This document shows, one piece after another, positions 56,488 through 62,251 of a stretch of DNA of 64,000 nt; within the stretch, counting starts at the first letter, position 1, and each line of letters begins with the position of its first letter. Source of the DNA: a phage. The stretch is taken from the sequence record PX994957.1. One strand, 5' to 3'. A model generated the notes under the pieces. It ran no database searches and had not been told where the DNA came from. It saw nothing but the letters and a program-made list of their open reading frames with translations. Position numbers and translations under genes: made by a program.

Positions 56488-57456
56488 TTATTTCAGAAGA
56501 GTAACCTCAGCGATTTCTTGCCAACCGTTTTTGTCGGTCATAATAAAGTCAGCAAGATAAAGTGCAGTACGCAGTGAAACATTGCGTAAACGGTTAACAT
56601 TGACTTTCATCCATGATAATGCTTTATAAGTTTCTTCATCAGAAAGACCGCGCTTTTGCATCATGTCGGTTGAAAGAATAACATCTTCAACCCTGACCAT
56701 AATTTCTTCATTAGTGTGAACACCCAAATCTAAATAAACTGAGCGGGACACTAATGCTTGTAAATGTGGAGCAAGTTTAGTACCACGGTCTAATTCGCGG
56801 TCAATGTCAACGTTTGTGATAAAAACAATCGTTCCTTTAAATTCAAACTCACGCTCAATGCCTTTTTCTTCTAAGTAAGAAGATGCAGTGCTCCAGCAGA
56901 CTTTACGGGTCTCTCCAGTGTCCAGAGCAGCTTTCAGAAGATTAAGAATGTCCATATCAGAGAAAACATCCACATCATCAATCAAAAGGACAGAATTCTC
57001 TTCACGATTATTCCAAAGTTGTTCATAAAGACCGATACCGGAGATTTTACCGTTAATGCTTTTATATTCAATGTATCCATTATCATTTGCTTTATTCAAA
57101 GCTTTATCTAAAGAATACGTTTTACCAATACCCGCCGCACCAGAGATAATTAATGAACGAATGTTTCCGTTAATAATACCATTCGTCATCATTCCCATAA
57201 CATTAAATCTTTTATTAATGCGGGTTTTCATATCTTCATATGATTCTTTAACTTCTTCAACTTTTACACCATCATATGAAATGTCTGATTTATAAACCCA
57301 AACACCGCGACGTTTACCGTCAATTTCAACAAAAACTTTACCATCTCCTTGTGCATCTACCGGAGCATTATCTGGGAACCATTCGCCTAAGAGCTCAAAA
57401 GTTCCAGAGATTTCTTTACCGAAGTAGATACCCTTATTGATAGTTACAGTTTTCAT
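56488..57456 (-). CDS. P-loop NTPase (AAA-like ATPase)
   Basis: 322 aa from ATG 57456 with SD GGAGAATAAA; Walker A GAAGIGKT, Walker B VLLIDDVD; track N-terminus is promoter read-through. Confidence 0.65.
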   Translation of the reverse strand: MKTVTINKGIYFGKEISGTFELLGEWFPDNAPVDAQGDGKVFVEIDGKRRGVWVYKSDISYDGVKVEEVKESYEDMKTRINKRFNVMGMMTNGIINGNIRSLIISGAAGIGKTYSLDKALNKANDNGYIEYKSINGKISGIGLYEQLWNNREENSVLLIDDVDVFSDMDILNLLKAALDTGETRKVCWSTASSYLEEKGIEREFEFKGTIVFITNVDIDRELDRGTKLAPHLQALVSRSVYLDLGVHTNEEIMVRVEDVILSTDMMQKRGLSDEETYKALSWMKVNVNRLRNVSLRTALYLADFIMTDKNGWQEIAEVTLLK

Positions 57457-57490
57457 TTTATTCTCCAAATCCGTATCAGTTGATAGTTGT

Positions 57491-57520
57491 ATAGTACCAT
57501 AAAGCTTTATGCTTGTAAAC
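57491..57520 (-). promoter_or_regulatory. T-even early promoter upstream of the ATPase gene
   Basis: GTTTAC (57515-57520), 18-nt spacer containing palindrome ATAAAGCTTTAT, TACTAT (57491-57496). Confidence 0.55.
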
Positions 57521-57552
57521 AATTTTGTGAAAAAATTTTTGAAATAAAAAAA

Positions 57553-57570
57553 GGGAGCCCGAAGGCTCCC
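57553..57570 (-). terminator. intrinsic terminator after the NTase-like gene
   Basis: GGGAGCC CGAA GGCTCCC followed on minus strand by UUUUUUUAUUUC. Confidence 0.65.
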
Positions 57571-57572
57571 TA

Positions 57573-58586
57573 TCATTTATAATAACTTCGGTGGTTTTCA
57601 AGATAAACCTTCTCAAGGAAGTCATCCCAGAAACCCATGTCTACTTTTTGCTGCATACCGTTCTTAGAAGCTTCAGTAGATGCTGCTTCTACTTGATCGA
57701 CCACATCTTCCAAAAACTCTTGAACTGTTTTAAATGGATGTTTACCCAACTTCACGTCGAGAATAAATGGAGCATCTTGAAGTGGATAAACCAAGTCACC
57801 AGTTTTGTAAATTTCCAATAGTTGAAGTCCACCACGGCAAGCATGGCTCAGAGCTTTCCAGTCAATGCCCTCATTCGCTTCAGCCTTACGAGCACGTTCG
57901 CCGTATTCAGCATCTAATTTGTTAAGTGACTGCTTAAGCTCAATAAGAGAAAGTGTTGTCTGATATTTACGACCCAACACAGTGTAAAACGTTTGTGGAC
58001 CTGTTTTCTCATGATTATGGAATACCCATTCACAGAACTCGTTTTCAGGGAGTCTGTGTTTGATATCTTCTATCTTAGTACGACGAAGTCTATCAGGGAT
58101 TCCTTCTTGATAGTCGACCCACTGGTCAGGGATTTGATTAACTACTTTCAATACATCACGTAATGCGGCCAAACGAGAACCCTTGACACCGTATTTAGAA
58201 GCTTGCTTGCGGACATATCCTAAATAGGATTTCATGTTAGTTGTATAAAACCGTGAACGATTGTCTTGGATAAATTTCCATACATCAGGCAAATCAGATT
58301 TAACCACTAGTTCAGGCGGAGTGTGAAGCATATCCAATGCTACAGTTTCACCATCTGCTGCTAATTTAAAGAAATACTTAAGACTGTATAGTTCATGGTC
58401 AATATCATCTTTAGTGTTTTTAGATGATGTGTTGTTAGTGTTTTTACTCATATGCTCTTTAACATTTCCGATAAGAATATCGCGAGCACGAGGAACAAAG
58501 ATTTCTTTAAAATCTACATCAGATTCTGGAGTAGAAGTTCCATAAAGATGACTACCAAAATAGCTTTTCATTACTGTTTTCATCAT
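57573..58586 (-). CDS. nucleotidyltransferase-fold protein
   Basis: 337 aa; N-terminal FGSHLYGTSTPESDVDF fits Pol-beta NTase GS-x10-DxD signature with a later candidate catalytic Asp (VALDMLH). Confidence 0.55.
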   Translation of the reverse strand: MMKTVMKSYFGSHLYGTSTPESDVDFKEIFVPRARDILIGNVKEHMSKNTNNTSSKNTKDDIDHELYSLKYFFKLAADGETVALDMLHTPPELVVKSDLPDVWKFIQDNRSRFYTTNMKSYLGYVRKQASKYGVKGSRLAALRDVLKVVNQIPDQWVDYQEGIPDRLRRTKIEDIKHRLPENEFCEWVFHNHEKTGPQTFYTVLGRKYQTTLSLIELKQSLNKLDAEYGERARKAEANEGIDWKALSHACRGGLQLLEIYKTGDLVYPLQDAPFILDVKLGKHPFKTVQEFLEDVVDQVEAASTEASKNGMQQKVDMGFWDDFLEKVYLENHRSYYK

Positions 58587-59044
58587 TCAGCCTTATATTC
58601 AATAACAGGACATACTTTAGCTTTACGAGCTTTTAAAAATTCAACGATAATCGATTTCTTGGATTGAATAGGAGGTAAACCTTTATTTTTCCTATCAATA
58701 TTTTCTACGTGTAAAGCATAATCCTTTTTCCATTTATAATCTTTATATTTTTCACGCAAATGTGCAGGAATAACAAATGAACCGATAATAAGTAAAACAA
58801 CCAAAAGCGCAAGTATAAATGCCGATGGAAGAAGAGCCCATAAACTACCGAAAATAAGCCAACGTTGTAGGCTTTCTGCACAAATAATTGTTAACCCTAC
58901 GAGTATAGCACACCCAAAAATAGAAACGAAAAATGTAGGTATGGCAATAGACCAAAAATATGCGCATAGTGTCTTAGGTCGTTGCCATTCATCGTTAAAC
59001 AATTTGAATAATTTATAGTGCCAAGAGTTTTCATTAATAATCAT
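58583..59044 (-). CDS. membrane protein
   Basis: 153 aa; hydrophobic segments SIAIPTFFVSIFGCAILVGLTIICA and GSLWALLPSAFILALLVVLLIIGSFVI. Confidence 0.55.
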   Translation of the reverse strand: MIINENSWHYKLFKLFNDEWQRPKTLCAYFWSIAIPTFFVSIFGCAILVGLTIICAESLQRWLIFGSLWALLPSAFILALLVVLLIIGSFVIPAHLREKYKDYKWKKDYALHVENIDRKNKGLPPIQSKKSIIVEFLKARKAKVCPVIEYKAE

Positions 59045-59046
59045 AA

Positions 59047-59568
59047 TTATCCTTTCATTGAAGGCGTAACGGTTGTTAAATACTTAATCATAGCTTCAGC
59101 TTCTGATTTTGATAGTGAAATTTCTTCACCGTTTTGGCGAATAGAAACAAAATCTGGATGACGATCACCACCAGCTTTTAAAACACACATATAAGTATCA
59201 GCTTCGCCTTCAATATTTGAAATGATTGAAGCAGTTCCACACGAATGTGGTTTTTGATAAATCAATACAGCTTTTCTTCCACCATTTGACTGTTCATAGG
59301 CTTTTAATACATCAAACAAATCAGTTCTTTTATCAATAGCTAAAATGTTATTTTCATCTTCAATGTTAAATCCTTCGGATACTTCATAAAGCGTTACCCA
59401 TAAATCACCAATGTCAATAACAGCATTTACTTTTCCACGACTTTCAAGAGTATGACAAATTTTCTTGATTTCGTCATAACTCATTTTAATAATATCATCT
59501 CCTTGACTAAGGAAGATGTCATTTTTAAATTCAACACGAATTAAACCGCTTCCACTTGAAATAAACAT
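59047..59568 (-). CDS. hypothetical protein (paralog pair member)
   Basis: 173 aa; C-terminal FVSIRQNGEEISLSKSEAEAMIKYLTTVTPSM parallels next ORF. Confidence 0.55.
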   Translation of the reverse strand: MFISSGSGLIRVEFKNDIFLSQGDDIIKMSYDEIKKICHTLESRGKVNAVIDIGDLWVTLYEVSEGFNIEDENNILAIDKRTDLFDVLKAYEQSNGGRKAVLIYQKPHSCGTASIISNIEGEADTYMCVLKAGGDRHPDFVSIRQNGEEISLSKSEAEAMIKYLTTVTPSMKG

Positions 59569-59574
59569 ATTTCC

Positions 59575-60129
59575 TCACTTTGAAATCATAGTTGGAATAA
59601 CAGAATCAAGATAAGTCTTTAGTGCAATAGCTTCGTCTTTGGTAAATGTGACAATATGTGATCGAAAATCGTCAATTTGACGAATAGATACTATATCTCC
59701 CTCTTCATAGCATTTTGAAACATTTAAAATAGTTTCATCATTCTGATTACAGGAGTTAGTAATAATAGCATTACATTTTTTAAACCATTTTAAATTATGT
59801 TTTCTTTTAGTAGAATCATAAAAATATTTAATGTTAGTTATAAAATTATCCCAATTATTAATTGATAAGCACATTGACTCGCTTTTAATATTAAATCCTG
59901 GACATGAAGAATAAAAATGAATTTTATGCTCATCATTAATGCTTACAATTTTATCAGTGTAAGCATATTCAATTTGGGTTAAACGAACAATTTCACTAGG
60001 CGTAAAATATAACATATCGTCTTCTTGTGTCAAACGATACATATTATTTACTTTTTCTATAGCCAATTCACCAAAAAGTGAACTAACTTCTAATACTAAT
60101 CGTTTCATATTAATCCTTTTTAATGGCAT
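59575..60129 (-). CDS. hypothetical protein (paralog pair member)
   Basis: 184 aa; C-terminal IVSIRQIDDFRSHIVTFTKDEAIALKTYLDSVIPTM. Confidence 0.55.
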   Translation of the reverse strand: MPLKRINMKRLVLEVSSLFGELAIEKVNNMYRLTQEDDMLYFTPSEIVRLTQIEYAYTDKIVSINDEHKIHFYSSCPGFNIKSESMCLSINNWDNFITNIKYFYDSTKRKHNLKWFKKCNAIITNSCNQNDETILNVSKCYEEGDIVSIRQIDDFRSHIVTFTKDEAIALKTYLDSVIPTMISK

Positions 60130-60376
60130 GAATTTGTTCTAAAATTTTAGAGTATTCCTTTATATCAGATTTACGTACAATCGATACACTATAAGGCATA
60201 CTATCGGTGTCTTTTATAAAGCGTTCCAAATGACACTCTAACAAAATTTCTGGATTATAAATCGTGTACATCAAATTACCTGTTGCTCCACGATATTGAC
60301 AGATTTCTACTGATTGAGCATCATTCCACAATTTTGTTAAGACCAAATCACCTACTTCTAATTTAGGAAAGCCCAT
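60110..60376 (-). CDS. hypothetical protein
   Basis: 88 aa from ATG 60376 (TAACATG junction, SD GGTGA). Confidence 0.5.
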   Translation of the reverse strand: MGFPKLEVGDLVLTKLWNDAQSVEICQYRGATGNLMYTIYNPEILLECHLERFIKDTDSMPYSVSIVRKSDIKEYSKILEQIHAIKKD

Positions 60377-60377
60377 G

Positions 60378-60563
60378 TTATTCACCAATTAAAGTTTCAA
60401 TATAAGAATCAAGATTTACTTTAGCTTCTTCCATAAGAGTTTTGTATTTAATCTTGATAGCATGTCCGGAGAAAGCTGATTCATCAATAACTGTTGCTGT
60501 ATGAACAGCTTTGCTATATGTTTCAATTAATTCTCTTAATTTAAAAGCCTGCTCACTCGTCAT
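60378..60563 (-). CDS. hypothetical protein
   Basis: 61 aa; ATG 60563 with SD AAAGGAGT. Confidence 0.5.
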   Translation of the reverse strand: MTSEQAFKLRELIETYSKAVHTATVIDESAFSGHAIKIKYKTLMEEAKVNLDSYIETLIGE

Positions 60564-60667
60564 TACATACTCCTTTGAATCATATCAATAATATTGTTCA
60601 CCAGATTATAGGTAAACAAAGGATAATTATATTGAATCATCACATACACGACAAACAAAATTTTCAT
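60563..60667 (-). CDS. 34-aa hydrophobic peptide
   Basis: ATG 60667 with strong SD GAGGAGAAGAGA directly downstream of early promoter; absent from ORF track. Confidence 0.4.
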   Translation of the reverse strand: MKILFVVYVMIQYNYPLFTYNLVNNIIDMIQRSM

Positions 60668-60695
60668 TCTCTTCTCCTCAGCAGTTGACAAGATT

Positions 60696-60725
60696 ACTAT
60701 ACCATAACCTTGCCAACTTGTAAAC
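60696..60725 (-). promoter_or_regulatory. T-even early promoter
   Basis: GTTTAC (60720-60725), 18-nt spacer, TATAGT (60696-60701). Confidence 0.5.
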
Positions 60726-60727
60726 CA

Positions 60728-60901
60728 TTAAATGGCGTTTTCAATAAAATTCTGAAGCTTTGTGTGAGCATCAACCATGATTTTCATTTCTTCTTTGGCG
60801 AAAGCTGTACCTCTTTCCCGAGAAGAACATTCATAGTCAGAAACTGCATTAGCATATTCTTCGATTAGTTTCATTAAAAACATCTGTTTTTCAGTTTTCA
60901 T
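60728..60901 (-). CDS. 57-aa hypothetical protein
   Basis: ATG 60901 with SD AGGTGGAATA; MKTEKQMFLMKLIEEYANAVSDYECSS; absent from ORF track. Confidence 0.45.
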   Translation of the reverse strand: MKTEKQMFLMKLIEEYANAVSDYECSSRERGTAFAKEEMKIMVDAHTKLQNFIENAI

Positions 60902-61085
60902 TATTCCACCTAATCATTTCAAGATATTGAACTAACTTAGCTTTAGATTTATCCAAATCCTTTTTAGCTGCTTCTATACCGTCGTATGAATATCCTTCAC
61001 AATGCTCAACTGCTAATTGATATGAATCTATTTCAATATCACGTGCTAATTTAATGATTTTTTCAAACTGTTCGCGTGTTAGCAT
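60891..61085 (-). CDS. hypothetical protein
   Basis: 64 aa; ATG 61085. Confidence 0.5.
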   Translation of the reverse strand: MLTREQFEKIIKLARDIEIDSYQLAVEHCEGYSYDGIEAAKKDLDKSKAKLVQYLEMIRWNNEN

Positions 61086-61087
61086 AC

Positions 61088-61291
61088 TTACACTCTCGTA
61101 TTATGATCGATAATTTCATCAAGAAACATATCTAACGCTTCTATAGCATTATCCACTTTAGTTTCAAAGTCTTTAATGCCTTTATTCGAAATACCCGATG
61201 AATACCAAGCAAAGTCAATCAGCTCTTCATCTGCTTTACGAATTGAAGCCACTAATTCCTTGATTTTATCTGCTTGCTCTATACTAATCAT
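61088..61291 (-). CDS. hypothetical protein
   Basis: 67 aa from ATG 61291 (TAATG junction, SD GGTGGAATA); track start is GTG. Confidence 0.5.
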   Translation of the reverse strand: MISIEQADKIKELVASIRKADEELIDFAWYSSGISNKGIKDFETKVDNAIEALDMFLDEIIDHNTRV

Positions 61292-61479
61292 TATTCCACC
61301 ACATATGACAGAGAGAATATTGCACACGCCATGTGAGTTGCAACTTCATCACACATATTATAACGTTTCTTAAGAAATTCTACAAGTTCTTCACTAGTAA
61401 CTTCATCCATGTCGACGAAAAAATCACCATTAATGATGACGTAGATATTTCCTTCTTGATTGAGTGCTTCAATTTTCAT
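61291..61479 (-). CDS. hypothetical protein
   Basis: 62 aa from ATG 61479 with SD GAGGAGAATATC. Confidence 0.5.
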
Positions 61480-61537: not shown

Positions 61538-61553
61538 CGGTAAAATGAAAAAA

Positions 61554-61569
61554 GTCTCCCGAAGGAGAC
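61554..61569 (-). terminator. intrinsic terminator after rI.-1
   Basis: GTCTCC CGAA GGAGAC followed on minus strand by UUUUUUCAUUUUA. Confidence 0.6.
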
Positions 61570-61574
61570 TAATG

Positions 61575-61961
61575 TTATTCGAGGGAAAGAAGATACTTAC
61601 TCTGGTAAAACATTCCAGTAATATCATCTATCGTGCTTTGAATGGCTGGAGGCATTTCTTTATAAATGCTGTTAGATTGGTCTAGTATGCGATCAATCAT
61701 TTTAATTGTGTCGGTAGGAAGTTTACTGGCATCTGGAATTGAAGGCGTGTATTTTCTACCAGAATACCCCAAATATTGCTCACCAAATTTATCAATCAAA
61801 TCTGGCAACTCGGAGAAAATAAAATCGTATGCTTTGTGTCTAGCATAACTTTTAGTTTCAAAATGCGCAGAATGAAAATAAGCTTGTGCAGCCATTAATA
61901 AACCTAAGTATTCATCTGCCTTTGAAGGTTTTCCACTTTGTGAAAAGTCGCTGAATTTCAT
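61575..61961 (-). CDS. rI.-1: rI.-1-like protein
   Basis: 128 aa, same length as T4 rI.-1 as recalled; immediately downstream of rI. Confidence 0.6.
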
Positions 61962-62251
61962 TCAGTCTCCAATTTAATGTTCATAATTCTAGCGTATGAT
62001 TGTGCCATCTCCGCGCCTCGTTCTATACATTCAAAATCAGAAGAGCACGGGTCATTTTTATAGGTCGTTCTCATAAAACTATAGAACTGTTCAGATGATT
62101 CTACGCTTTTATTTTCAAAAAGCATATAAACATGTCTAATACCAGATTCCATAAATTTATCAAAATGAGGATCGACATTCGCTTCAATTGGTGGAGATAA
62201 AGCAAATGACAATCCTAGCATGGCAAAAAGTGCCGTTGCTTTTAAGGCCAT
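61958..62251 (-). CDS. rI: RI lysis-inhibition regulator
   Basis: 97 aa, equal to T4 RI; N-terminal signal-anchor MALKATALFAMLGLSFALSP; SD GGAGG. Confidence 0.8.
   Translation of the reverse strand: MALKATALFAMLGLSFALSPPIEANVDPHFDKFMESGIRHVYMLFENKSVESSEQFYSFMRTTYKNDPCSSDFECIERGAEMAQSYARIMNIKLETE

Follow-up and report, generated by a model that had tools for sequence, protein, structure and literature searches.

Two adjacent mobD.1-family paralogues in the nrdC.11-rI segment of a Tequatrovirus genome: probable old divergence and a predicted Pur-alpha-like layout

The mobD.1 gene of phage T4 lies in the nrdC-rI region, which is known to be hyperplastic in T4-like phages. The Pfam label of the mobD.1 family, 'putative transcription factor', is a prediction. 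In T4 and RB5 the gene order is mobD.1, mobD (an HNH endonuclease gene) and nrdC.11, and in Mosigvirus (phage moha) and Dhakavirus (JS10) a single mobD.1 gene is followed by a membrane-protein gene and then by nrdC.11. A two-copy arrangement is found in RB32 and RB14, in which a second family member (RB32ORF097c and RB14ORF98, respectively) is followed by RB32ORF096c (GenBank note: 'replaces mobD'). RB14ORF98 is already described in GenBank as 'similar to mobD.1'. The pair and its family likeness are already known from GenBank (RB32ORF097c) and Pfam, and occur in hundreds of sequenced phages. Among the papers searched, mobD.1 was found in one only, as a label of an insertion site on a map, with no expression or phenotype data, and searches on y05I gave irrelevant matches only. 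As for the fold discussed below, PC4-like domains are divided into type I (two repeats in one chain) and type II (a dimer of single repeats), and Pur-alpha has both types, with dimerisation mediated by repeat III (PMC7549692). The T5 ssDNA-binding protein and AcrIIA22 are phage precedents for PC4-like proteins (PMC8545432).

The DNA analysed here (hereafter, the window) is a stretch of 64,000 nucleotides of a Tequatrovirus (T4-like) genome, sequence record PX994957.1. A sequence-only reading of the window had described two adjacent ORFs of 173 and 184 aa at 59047-60129 as diverged paralogues that share a C-terminal motif and a GFNI(E/K) motif, and had explained them as a local duplication in the nrdC-rI variable region. 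Both ORFs, named A (173 aa) and B (184 aa as the longest ORF) in this work, are present on the minus strand, both contain the two motifs (Table 1), and the pair lies in the plastic segment between nrdC.11 and rI, that is, between the rI/mobD.x genes and nrdC.11. The genes are closely packed and are read on the minus strand in the order Tudor, B, A, membrane protein and nrdC.11; the ATG of the membrane-protein gene is located 2 nt past the TAA of A. Over 58500-60500 the nearest records were phages wV7 and O157 typing phage 7 (DNA identity, 97.6%), and at least 80% of this 2-kb query, which holds A and B, was covered in 360 of the 506 phage records with a match. The GC content was 26.7% for B, 32.2% for A and 34.3% for the whole window.

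Table 1. Positions of the A and B genes, their domains and motifs, and neighbouring genes (window coordinates, unless a related locus is named)
Feature	Position	Strand	Basis or remark
nrdC.10	56488-57576	region read on minus strand	comparison with RB14 and T4
nrdC.11	57573-58586	region read on minus strand	comparison with RB14 and T4
Membrane protein, 153 aa (RB32ORF096c, phrog_944)	58583..59044	(-)	downstream neighbour of A
Membrane-protein homologs in related loci	L004 3087-3539; L005 3050-3523; L006 2921-3400; L007 2716-3144		
Gene A, 173 aa	59047..59568	(-)	ORF; PF24449 and PF24448; phrog_1502
A N-domain, residues 1-98	59275-59568	(-)	
A C-domain, residues 99-173	59050-59274	(-)	
A C-terminal motif, FVSIRQ...EAEAMIKYLTTVTPSM (also given as FVSIRQ...SKSEAEAMIKYLTTVTPSM)	59056..59151	(-)	
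A GFNIE motif	59359..59373	(-)	turn in second beta4-alpha repeat
Gene B, 184 aa as longest ORF	59575..60129	(-)	ORF; Pfam matches
B Pfam C-domain	59587-59796	(-)	
B C-terminal motif, IVSIRQ...EAIALKTYLDSVIPTM (also given as IVSIRQ...TKDEAIALKTYLDSVIPTM)	59587..59694	(-)	
B Pfam N-domain	59809-60099	(-)	
B GFNIK motif	59884..59898	(-)	sequence and A/B alignment
Phage_tudor protein, 92 aa	60110..60388	(-)	Pfam PF24144, E=5e-39; upstream neighbour of B
rI.-1	61575-61961	region read on minus strand	comparison with RB14 and T4
rI	61958-62251	region read on minus strand	comparison with RB14 and T4

The protein encoded by B aligned with T4 MobD.1 (Y05I_BPT4) over its whole length with ~97% identity (tblastn to a T4 record), is of the same length class and is encoded at the same position upstream of nrdC.11; on this sequence evidence, B is the ortholog of T4 mobD.1 (UniProt Y05I). 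The A protein has the same two domains as T4 MobD.1, yet is only ~27% identical to it. By the same kind of comparison A is the ortholog of RB32ORF097c and RB14ORF98, the second copy of the mobD.1 family; it was 96% identical to RB14 ORF98, and phages wV7 and teqhad encode proteins with exactly its sequence (100% identity). The arrangement in RB32 and RB14 is that of the window, except that the mobD.1 gene beside A in RB14 is truncated and lacks the C-domain, whereas B of the window is intact. T4 has no counterpart of A, and the mobD HNH endonuclease fills its slot; on presence and absence in T4-like relatives, which the sequence-only reading had proposed to compare, A is absent from T4 and RB5, and Mosigvirus and Dhakavirus have a single copy of mobD.1. 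From the gene order of moha and JS10, A lies exactly between mobD.1 and the gene that follows it in the single-copy genera.

With tblastn, A was found in 489 phage records (of which 434 reached at least 80% identity; matches below 30% identity are cross-matches to mobD.1 orthologs) and essentially only in Tequatrovirus-type genomes. The B family was found in 730 phage records; 413 of these had at least 80% identity and 314 had less than 60%, the latter including Mosigvirus and Dhakavirus. In some Tequatroviruses (e.g., SHBML-50-1) the gene in the B slot beside A is only 48% identical to B of the window, which is the identity level of the Mosigvirus homologs. Word-index homolog searches and a profile search gave close relatives only. 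When 1.84 billion representative proteins were searched exhaustively with a HMMER profile, only 23 clusters were obtained, of which 5 were full length, and nothing closer to A was found outside the family; one match, a repeat protein of 1354 aa (P0059), was rejected as a low-complexity false positive. NCBIfam gave no match, and weak Pfam matches to ART (E=0.047) and DUF7189 were discarded because they fell under their thresholds. Judged from these searches, the mobD.1 (Y05I) family is small and restricted to T4-like phages (Straboviridae).

The pairwise alignment that had been proposed as a check on the paralogy was significant: in BLASTP, A and B were 26% identical over 175 columns from end to end (46 bits, E=2e-11). 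When B was shuffled 1,000 times, the mean score was 5.7 bits and the maximum 27.7 bits, against 45.8 bits observed. Both proteins matched T4_y05I_N (PF24449; A, E=1e-33, 116.2 bits; B, E=3.5e-43, 146.7 bits; gathering score, 24.9 bits) and T4_y05I_C (PF24448; A, E=3e-23, 82.2 bits; B, E=1e-21, 77.0 bits; gathering score, 27 bits) above the gathering scores, and both matched phrog_1502. That the common motifs are a chance likeness of unrelated small AT-rich ORFs might be argued from the low identity and from the isolated C-domains of A and B, which gave no pairwise BLASTP match with each other; however, the full-length score lies far over all 1,000 shuffles and A and B have their two Pfam matches and their PHROG match in common (E<1e-20), so that chance similarity is ruled out and has a practically negligible probability. 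Thus, the alignment and domain matches show that A and B are true paralogues with an identical two-domain architecture, and the earlier description of them as diverged paralogues is borne out. In the family alignment, G66, N68, I69 and E72 (numbering of A) of the GFNIE region are invariant or nearly so. No part of the family is more conserved than the C-terminal motif, which stand-alone proteins of 69-87 aa also have; in A it spans the C-domain helix and the final two strands of that domain. Pairwise dN/dS values among orthologs were 0.09-0.22 for A and 0.12-0.30 for B, which indicates purifying selection on both genes.

The start of B is probably the ATG at 60108, giving a protein of 177 aa rather than the 184 aa of the longest ORF, because an AAGGA Shine-Dalgarno sequence is located 8 nt upstream (the start junction reads AAGGATTAATATG), because the TAA of the upstream Tudor-domain gene ends one base before this ATG and so abuts the probable start, and because the shorter form is annotated in RB5, HMD-9 and KIT06. 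No Shine-Dalgarno sequence was found in the DNA upstream of the ATG at 60129, the start of the longest ORF. The TGA of B overlaps the GAGGAAA Shine-Dalgarno sequence of A. From 58.5 to 61.5 kb, neither a T4 late promoter (TATAAATA) nor a MotA-box pattern was found on the coding strand. A terminator-like hairpin is located at 61553-61570, after rI.-1. Sigma-70-like sites were found at 60724-60696 and, inside B, at 60033-60006; note that the simple scan gave no enrichment of such sites (24 sites vs. 20.2 expected from shuffles). The site inside B (60006-60033 on the minus strand; TTGACA, 16 nt and TATATT, with TG; 11 of 12 consensus matches) falls on the codons for the conserved LTQEDDMLYF motif; it may serve A and the genes beyond it as an internal promoter, or may simply result from the codons. 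From the known layout of the T4 region, we infer that the A/B region is transcribed early.

Several observations were made on the neighbouring genes. The genes for the 92-aa Phage_tudor protein and a 61-aa DUF7438 protein sit between mobD.2 and mobD.1, and both are absent from T4. Upstream of the A/B pair there is a second tandem array of paralogues (window 60378-61327, minus strand; related loci L008-L010); in the related contigs, mobD.4, mobD.3, mobD.2a and the 61-aa ORF all matched Pfam DUF7438 (4 of 4), and the 61-aa ORF (60378-60563), the sole ORF of the array scanned in the window itself, matched it as well. Several RefSeq product names seem to be errors passed on from record to record: 'molybdopterin-guanine dinucleotide biosynthesis protein MobD' on mobD.1 and mobD.4, 'helicase loader' on the 61-aa DUF7438 ORF, and 'thioredoxin' on nrdC.11, which encodes a predicted nucleotidyltransferase (Pfam RlaP). 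In Mosigvirus, Dhakavirus, Moonvirus and Tegunavirus, the gene that comes immediately after the y05I_C-domain gene (or genes) encodes a homolog of the membrane protein (29-50% identity). The membrane-protein gene is lost together with A wherever mobD is present, and its pairing with y05I_C-domain genes is conserved.

The structure prediction that had likewise been proposed was performed with AF2, from shallow alignments (28 sequences for full-length A and 13 for the C-domain, including the stand-alone proteins). The model of A (mean pLDDT, 75; N-domain, 80-90; pTM, 0.52) has a beta4-alpha, beta4-alpha topology in residues 1-95 and a beta5-alpha topology in residues 100-167, and a separate model of the C-domain had a pLDDT of 83.6. 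In profile comparison with hhalign, repeat 1 aligned in register with the C-domain (E=6e-4); the alignment of repeat 1 with repeat 2 was weak (E=0.09). Since the predicted domain has two beta-beta-beta-beta-alpha repeats, the topology that defines the PC4-like/PUR/Whirly group, the N-domain is predicted to be a PC4-like fold of type I, with its two repeats in a single chain, and the C-domain is predicted to be a single half-repeat of the same kind. An N-domain of two repeats with a C-domain half-repeat gives the layout of Pur-alpha (repeats I-II and repeat III), and this predicted plan fits the Pfam label of the family. At the sequence level, no Pfam match to PUR, PC4 or Whirly was obtained at E<=1, the best match among PDB sequences had E=0.33 (these were chance matches only, none of them related), and in BFVD significant E-values were obtained only for members of the mobD.1 family.

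The two domains also behave as modules in related phages. The stand-alone proteins of 69-87 aa contain nothing but the C-domain, and their N-termini fall right on the domain boundary, so that the C-domain is an autonomous module. In Moonvirus and Tegunavirus such proteins are encoded in the same slot, directly upstream of the membrane-protein homolog (29-31% identity). Citrobacter phage Moon has two of them in tandem (gp107 and gp106, 78 and 76 aa; L006 2465-2921), both of which pass the Pfam threshold; this is a second, independent case of paired mobD.1-family members. In a hybrid protein (P0011; L008 2501-3040) the N-domain of B is fused to the C-domain of A just before DTYMC, and on six contigs its gene alone represents the family in the interval from the Tudor gene to that of the membrane protein. 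In phage TadeuszReichstein (P0012, bas43_0212) the start of a mobD.5-like ORF is fused to A at the same point before DTYMC. These two fusions suggest repeated deletions, possibly at short microhomology of the GATGAA type. In a T2 record (LC348380; L003 2489-4030) B, A and the membrane-protein gene are each frameshifted, which means either that the three have decayed jointly or that the sequence is poor in this stretch. From the losses, truncations, fusions and frameshifts in relatives, A and B are accessory genes that are dispensable under some conditions.

The remaining part of the sequence-only reading, the local duplication, stood only in part. A and B are adjacent, on the same strand and significantly similar over their full length, as expected of tandem duplicates, but they are not each other's closest relatives and their DNA similarity is confined to in-register patches of 23 nt and 16 nt under the two protein motifs. 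In neighbour-joining (NJ) trees of the full length, the N-domain and the C-domain (200 bootstraps each), A was sister to B in 0-2% of the replicates, whereas B grouped with the single-copy Mosigvirus orthologs in 85% (full length), 58% (N-domain) and 91% (C-domain). A recent tandem duplication is excluded by these trees and by the absent DNA similarity. The C-domain of A was 34% identical to that of B, against 29-44% to stand-alone C-domain proteins of other T4-like genera, and in a C-domain tree to which the stand-alone proteins were added as a root the base was unresolved and the order of events was not fixed. The divergence differs along the protein: A of the window and a T2-like allele (P0009) were 41% identical in the N-domain and 81% in the C-domain, and B and the Mosigvirus proteins were 39% and 65% identical, respectively. 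An old duplication within T4-like phages is plausible and is the most economical reading of the sequence data, because no relative of A was found outside the family among the 1.84 billion representative proteins and A was found essentially only in Tequatrovirus-type genomes; the slot that A occupies, next to mobD.1, likewise speaks for an origin inside T4-like phages. The duplication may have happened at the locus itself; alternatively, recombination with a relative not yet sampled may have brought A in. T4 and RB5 would later have lost A and the membrane-protein gene, and the mobD homing endonuclease now occupies the site. Alternatively, mobD.1 may have been duplicated in tandem in place within the Tequatrovirus lineage, with very fast divergence of A afterwards. 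The adjacency, common strand and common architecture of the two genes, the position of A, flanked by mobD.1 and by the membrane-protein gene, which genera with a single copy have directly after mobD.1, and the finding of A essentially only in Tequatrovirus-type genomes with no outside donor among the 1.84 billion representatives would all agree with such an event, and long-branch attraction could hide a grouping of A with B by drawing the long branch of A off B. We nevertheless regard it as unlikely, since the bootstrap values given above separate A from B and join B to Mosigvirus, since the C-domain of A is as distant from that of B as from the stand-alone proteins of other genera, and since the DNA similarity is gone.

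Taken together, we consider it fairly probable that A and B are anciently diverged tandem members of the mobD.1 family with a Pur-alpha-like predicted fold and C-domain dimers, and that they arose by an old duplication. From the fold matches of the C-domain and the existence of stand-alone C-domain proteins, a C-domain would pair with a second C-domain to form a PC4-like unit of type II, giving homodimers and possibly A:B heterodimers, and the N-domains would engage a ligand early in infection. This ligand could be ssDNA or RNA, as in other PC4-like proteins, or could instead be a host or phage protein, given the acidic character of the family. A more specific proposal is that the mobD.1 family is a viral counterpart of Pur-alpha with three PC4-like repeats that dimerises through its C-terminal half-repeat, as homodimers or mixed A:B dimers, and binds, unwinds or mimics single-stranded nucleic acid early in infection, maybe together with the membrane protein; we hold this proposal to be rather doubtful. 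If it were true, the fast-diverging N-domains of the paralogues would represent two target specificities.

The charge of the proteins bears on these proposals. The calculated pI was 4.9 for A, 6.4 for B, 4.2-4.6 for the Mosigvirus and Dhakavirus members and 4.3-5.3 for most stand-alone proteins, and A and B have net charges of -8 and -1, with values of -10 to -20 in the members from Mosigvirus and Dhakavirus. The invariant residues in the family alignment include the acidic clusters QEDD and NIExE, not the basic and aromatic residues that nucleic-acid binding would lead one to expect. The acidic pI and the conserved acidic motifs argue against a classical basic nucleic-acid-binding surface and leave room for a protein-binding or mimic role. 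The proteins may thus have a PC4/Whirly-like shape without nucleic-acid binding and act as acidic decoys, DNA mimics or SsgA/SsgB-like recruiters, whose target could be the adjacent membrane protein or some other protein of phage or host. A role that does not involve nucleic acids has a precedent in the SsgA proteins, which have the Whirly fold. Besides the negative charge and the conserved acidic clusters, the linkage to the membrane-protein gene in five genera and the frameshifts in B, A and the membrane-protein gene of the T2 record agree with this explanation. On the other hand, the majority of solved relatives with the PC4/Whirly fold are ssDNA- or RNA-binding proteins, B has almost no net charge and a stand-alone C-domain member is basic (pI 9.2), so that we consider it possible, though less than probable. 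An obligate heterodimer of A and B, formed through their two different C-domains, would be consistent with the apparent translational coupling of the tandem (the stop codon of B overlapping the Shine-Dalgarno sequence of A), with the two different tandem C-domain proteins of Moon, and with the heterodimerisation of Pur-alpha and Pur-beta through repeat III that has been proposed (PMC7549692). However, T4, RB5, Mosigvirus and Dhakavirus have a B-type gene alone, RB14 keeps A although its B has no C-domain, and one hybrid gene stands for both on some contigs. Because each paralogue thus occurs without an intact partner (T4 and RB14), an A:B heterodimer cannot be obligatory, and this explanation was judged very unlikely.

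For the biology of T4-like phages little is changed, since A and B are an ordinary accessory gene pair of a region long known to vary. The new elements are a hypothesis on structure, in which three PC4-like repeats are laid out as in Pur-alpha and the C-terminal half-repeat is a possible dimerisation module, and an evolutionary picture: an old divergence, domains that are swapped and fused between paralogues, loss of the pair when the mobD endonuclease is present, and a conserved linkage to the membrane-protein gene. Thus, in T4-like phages mobD.1 and its paralogue are candidates, open to testing, for proteins that bind nucleic acids or act as decoys. Regarding known proteins of the predicted fold, the T5 PC4-like protein (PDB 4BG7) and AcrIIA22 were absent among the matches listed. 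The single-repeat dimers of the PC4/Sub1 type resemble the mobD.1 family at the fold level only. The Whirly, MRP1-MRP2 and SsgA-SsgB proteins form tetramers (heterotetramers for MRP1/MRP2) and are without a third half-repeat. Pur-alpha, a eukaryotic ssDNA/RNA-binding protein with three PUR repeats, was matched at 5-14% sequence identity, with no Pfam PUR match; the phage proteins differ from it in being acidic and in having a C-domain with five predicted strands.
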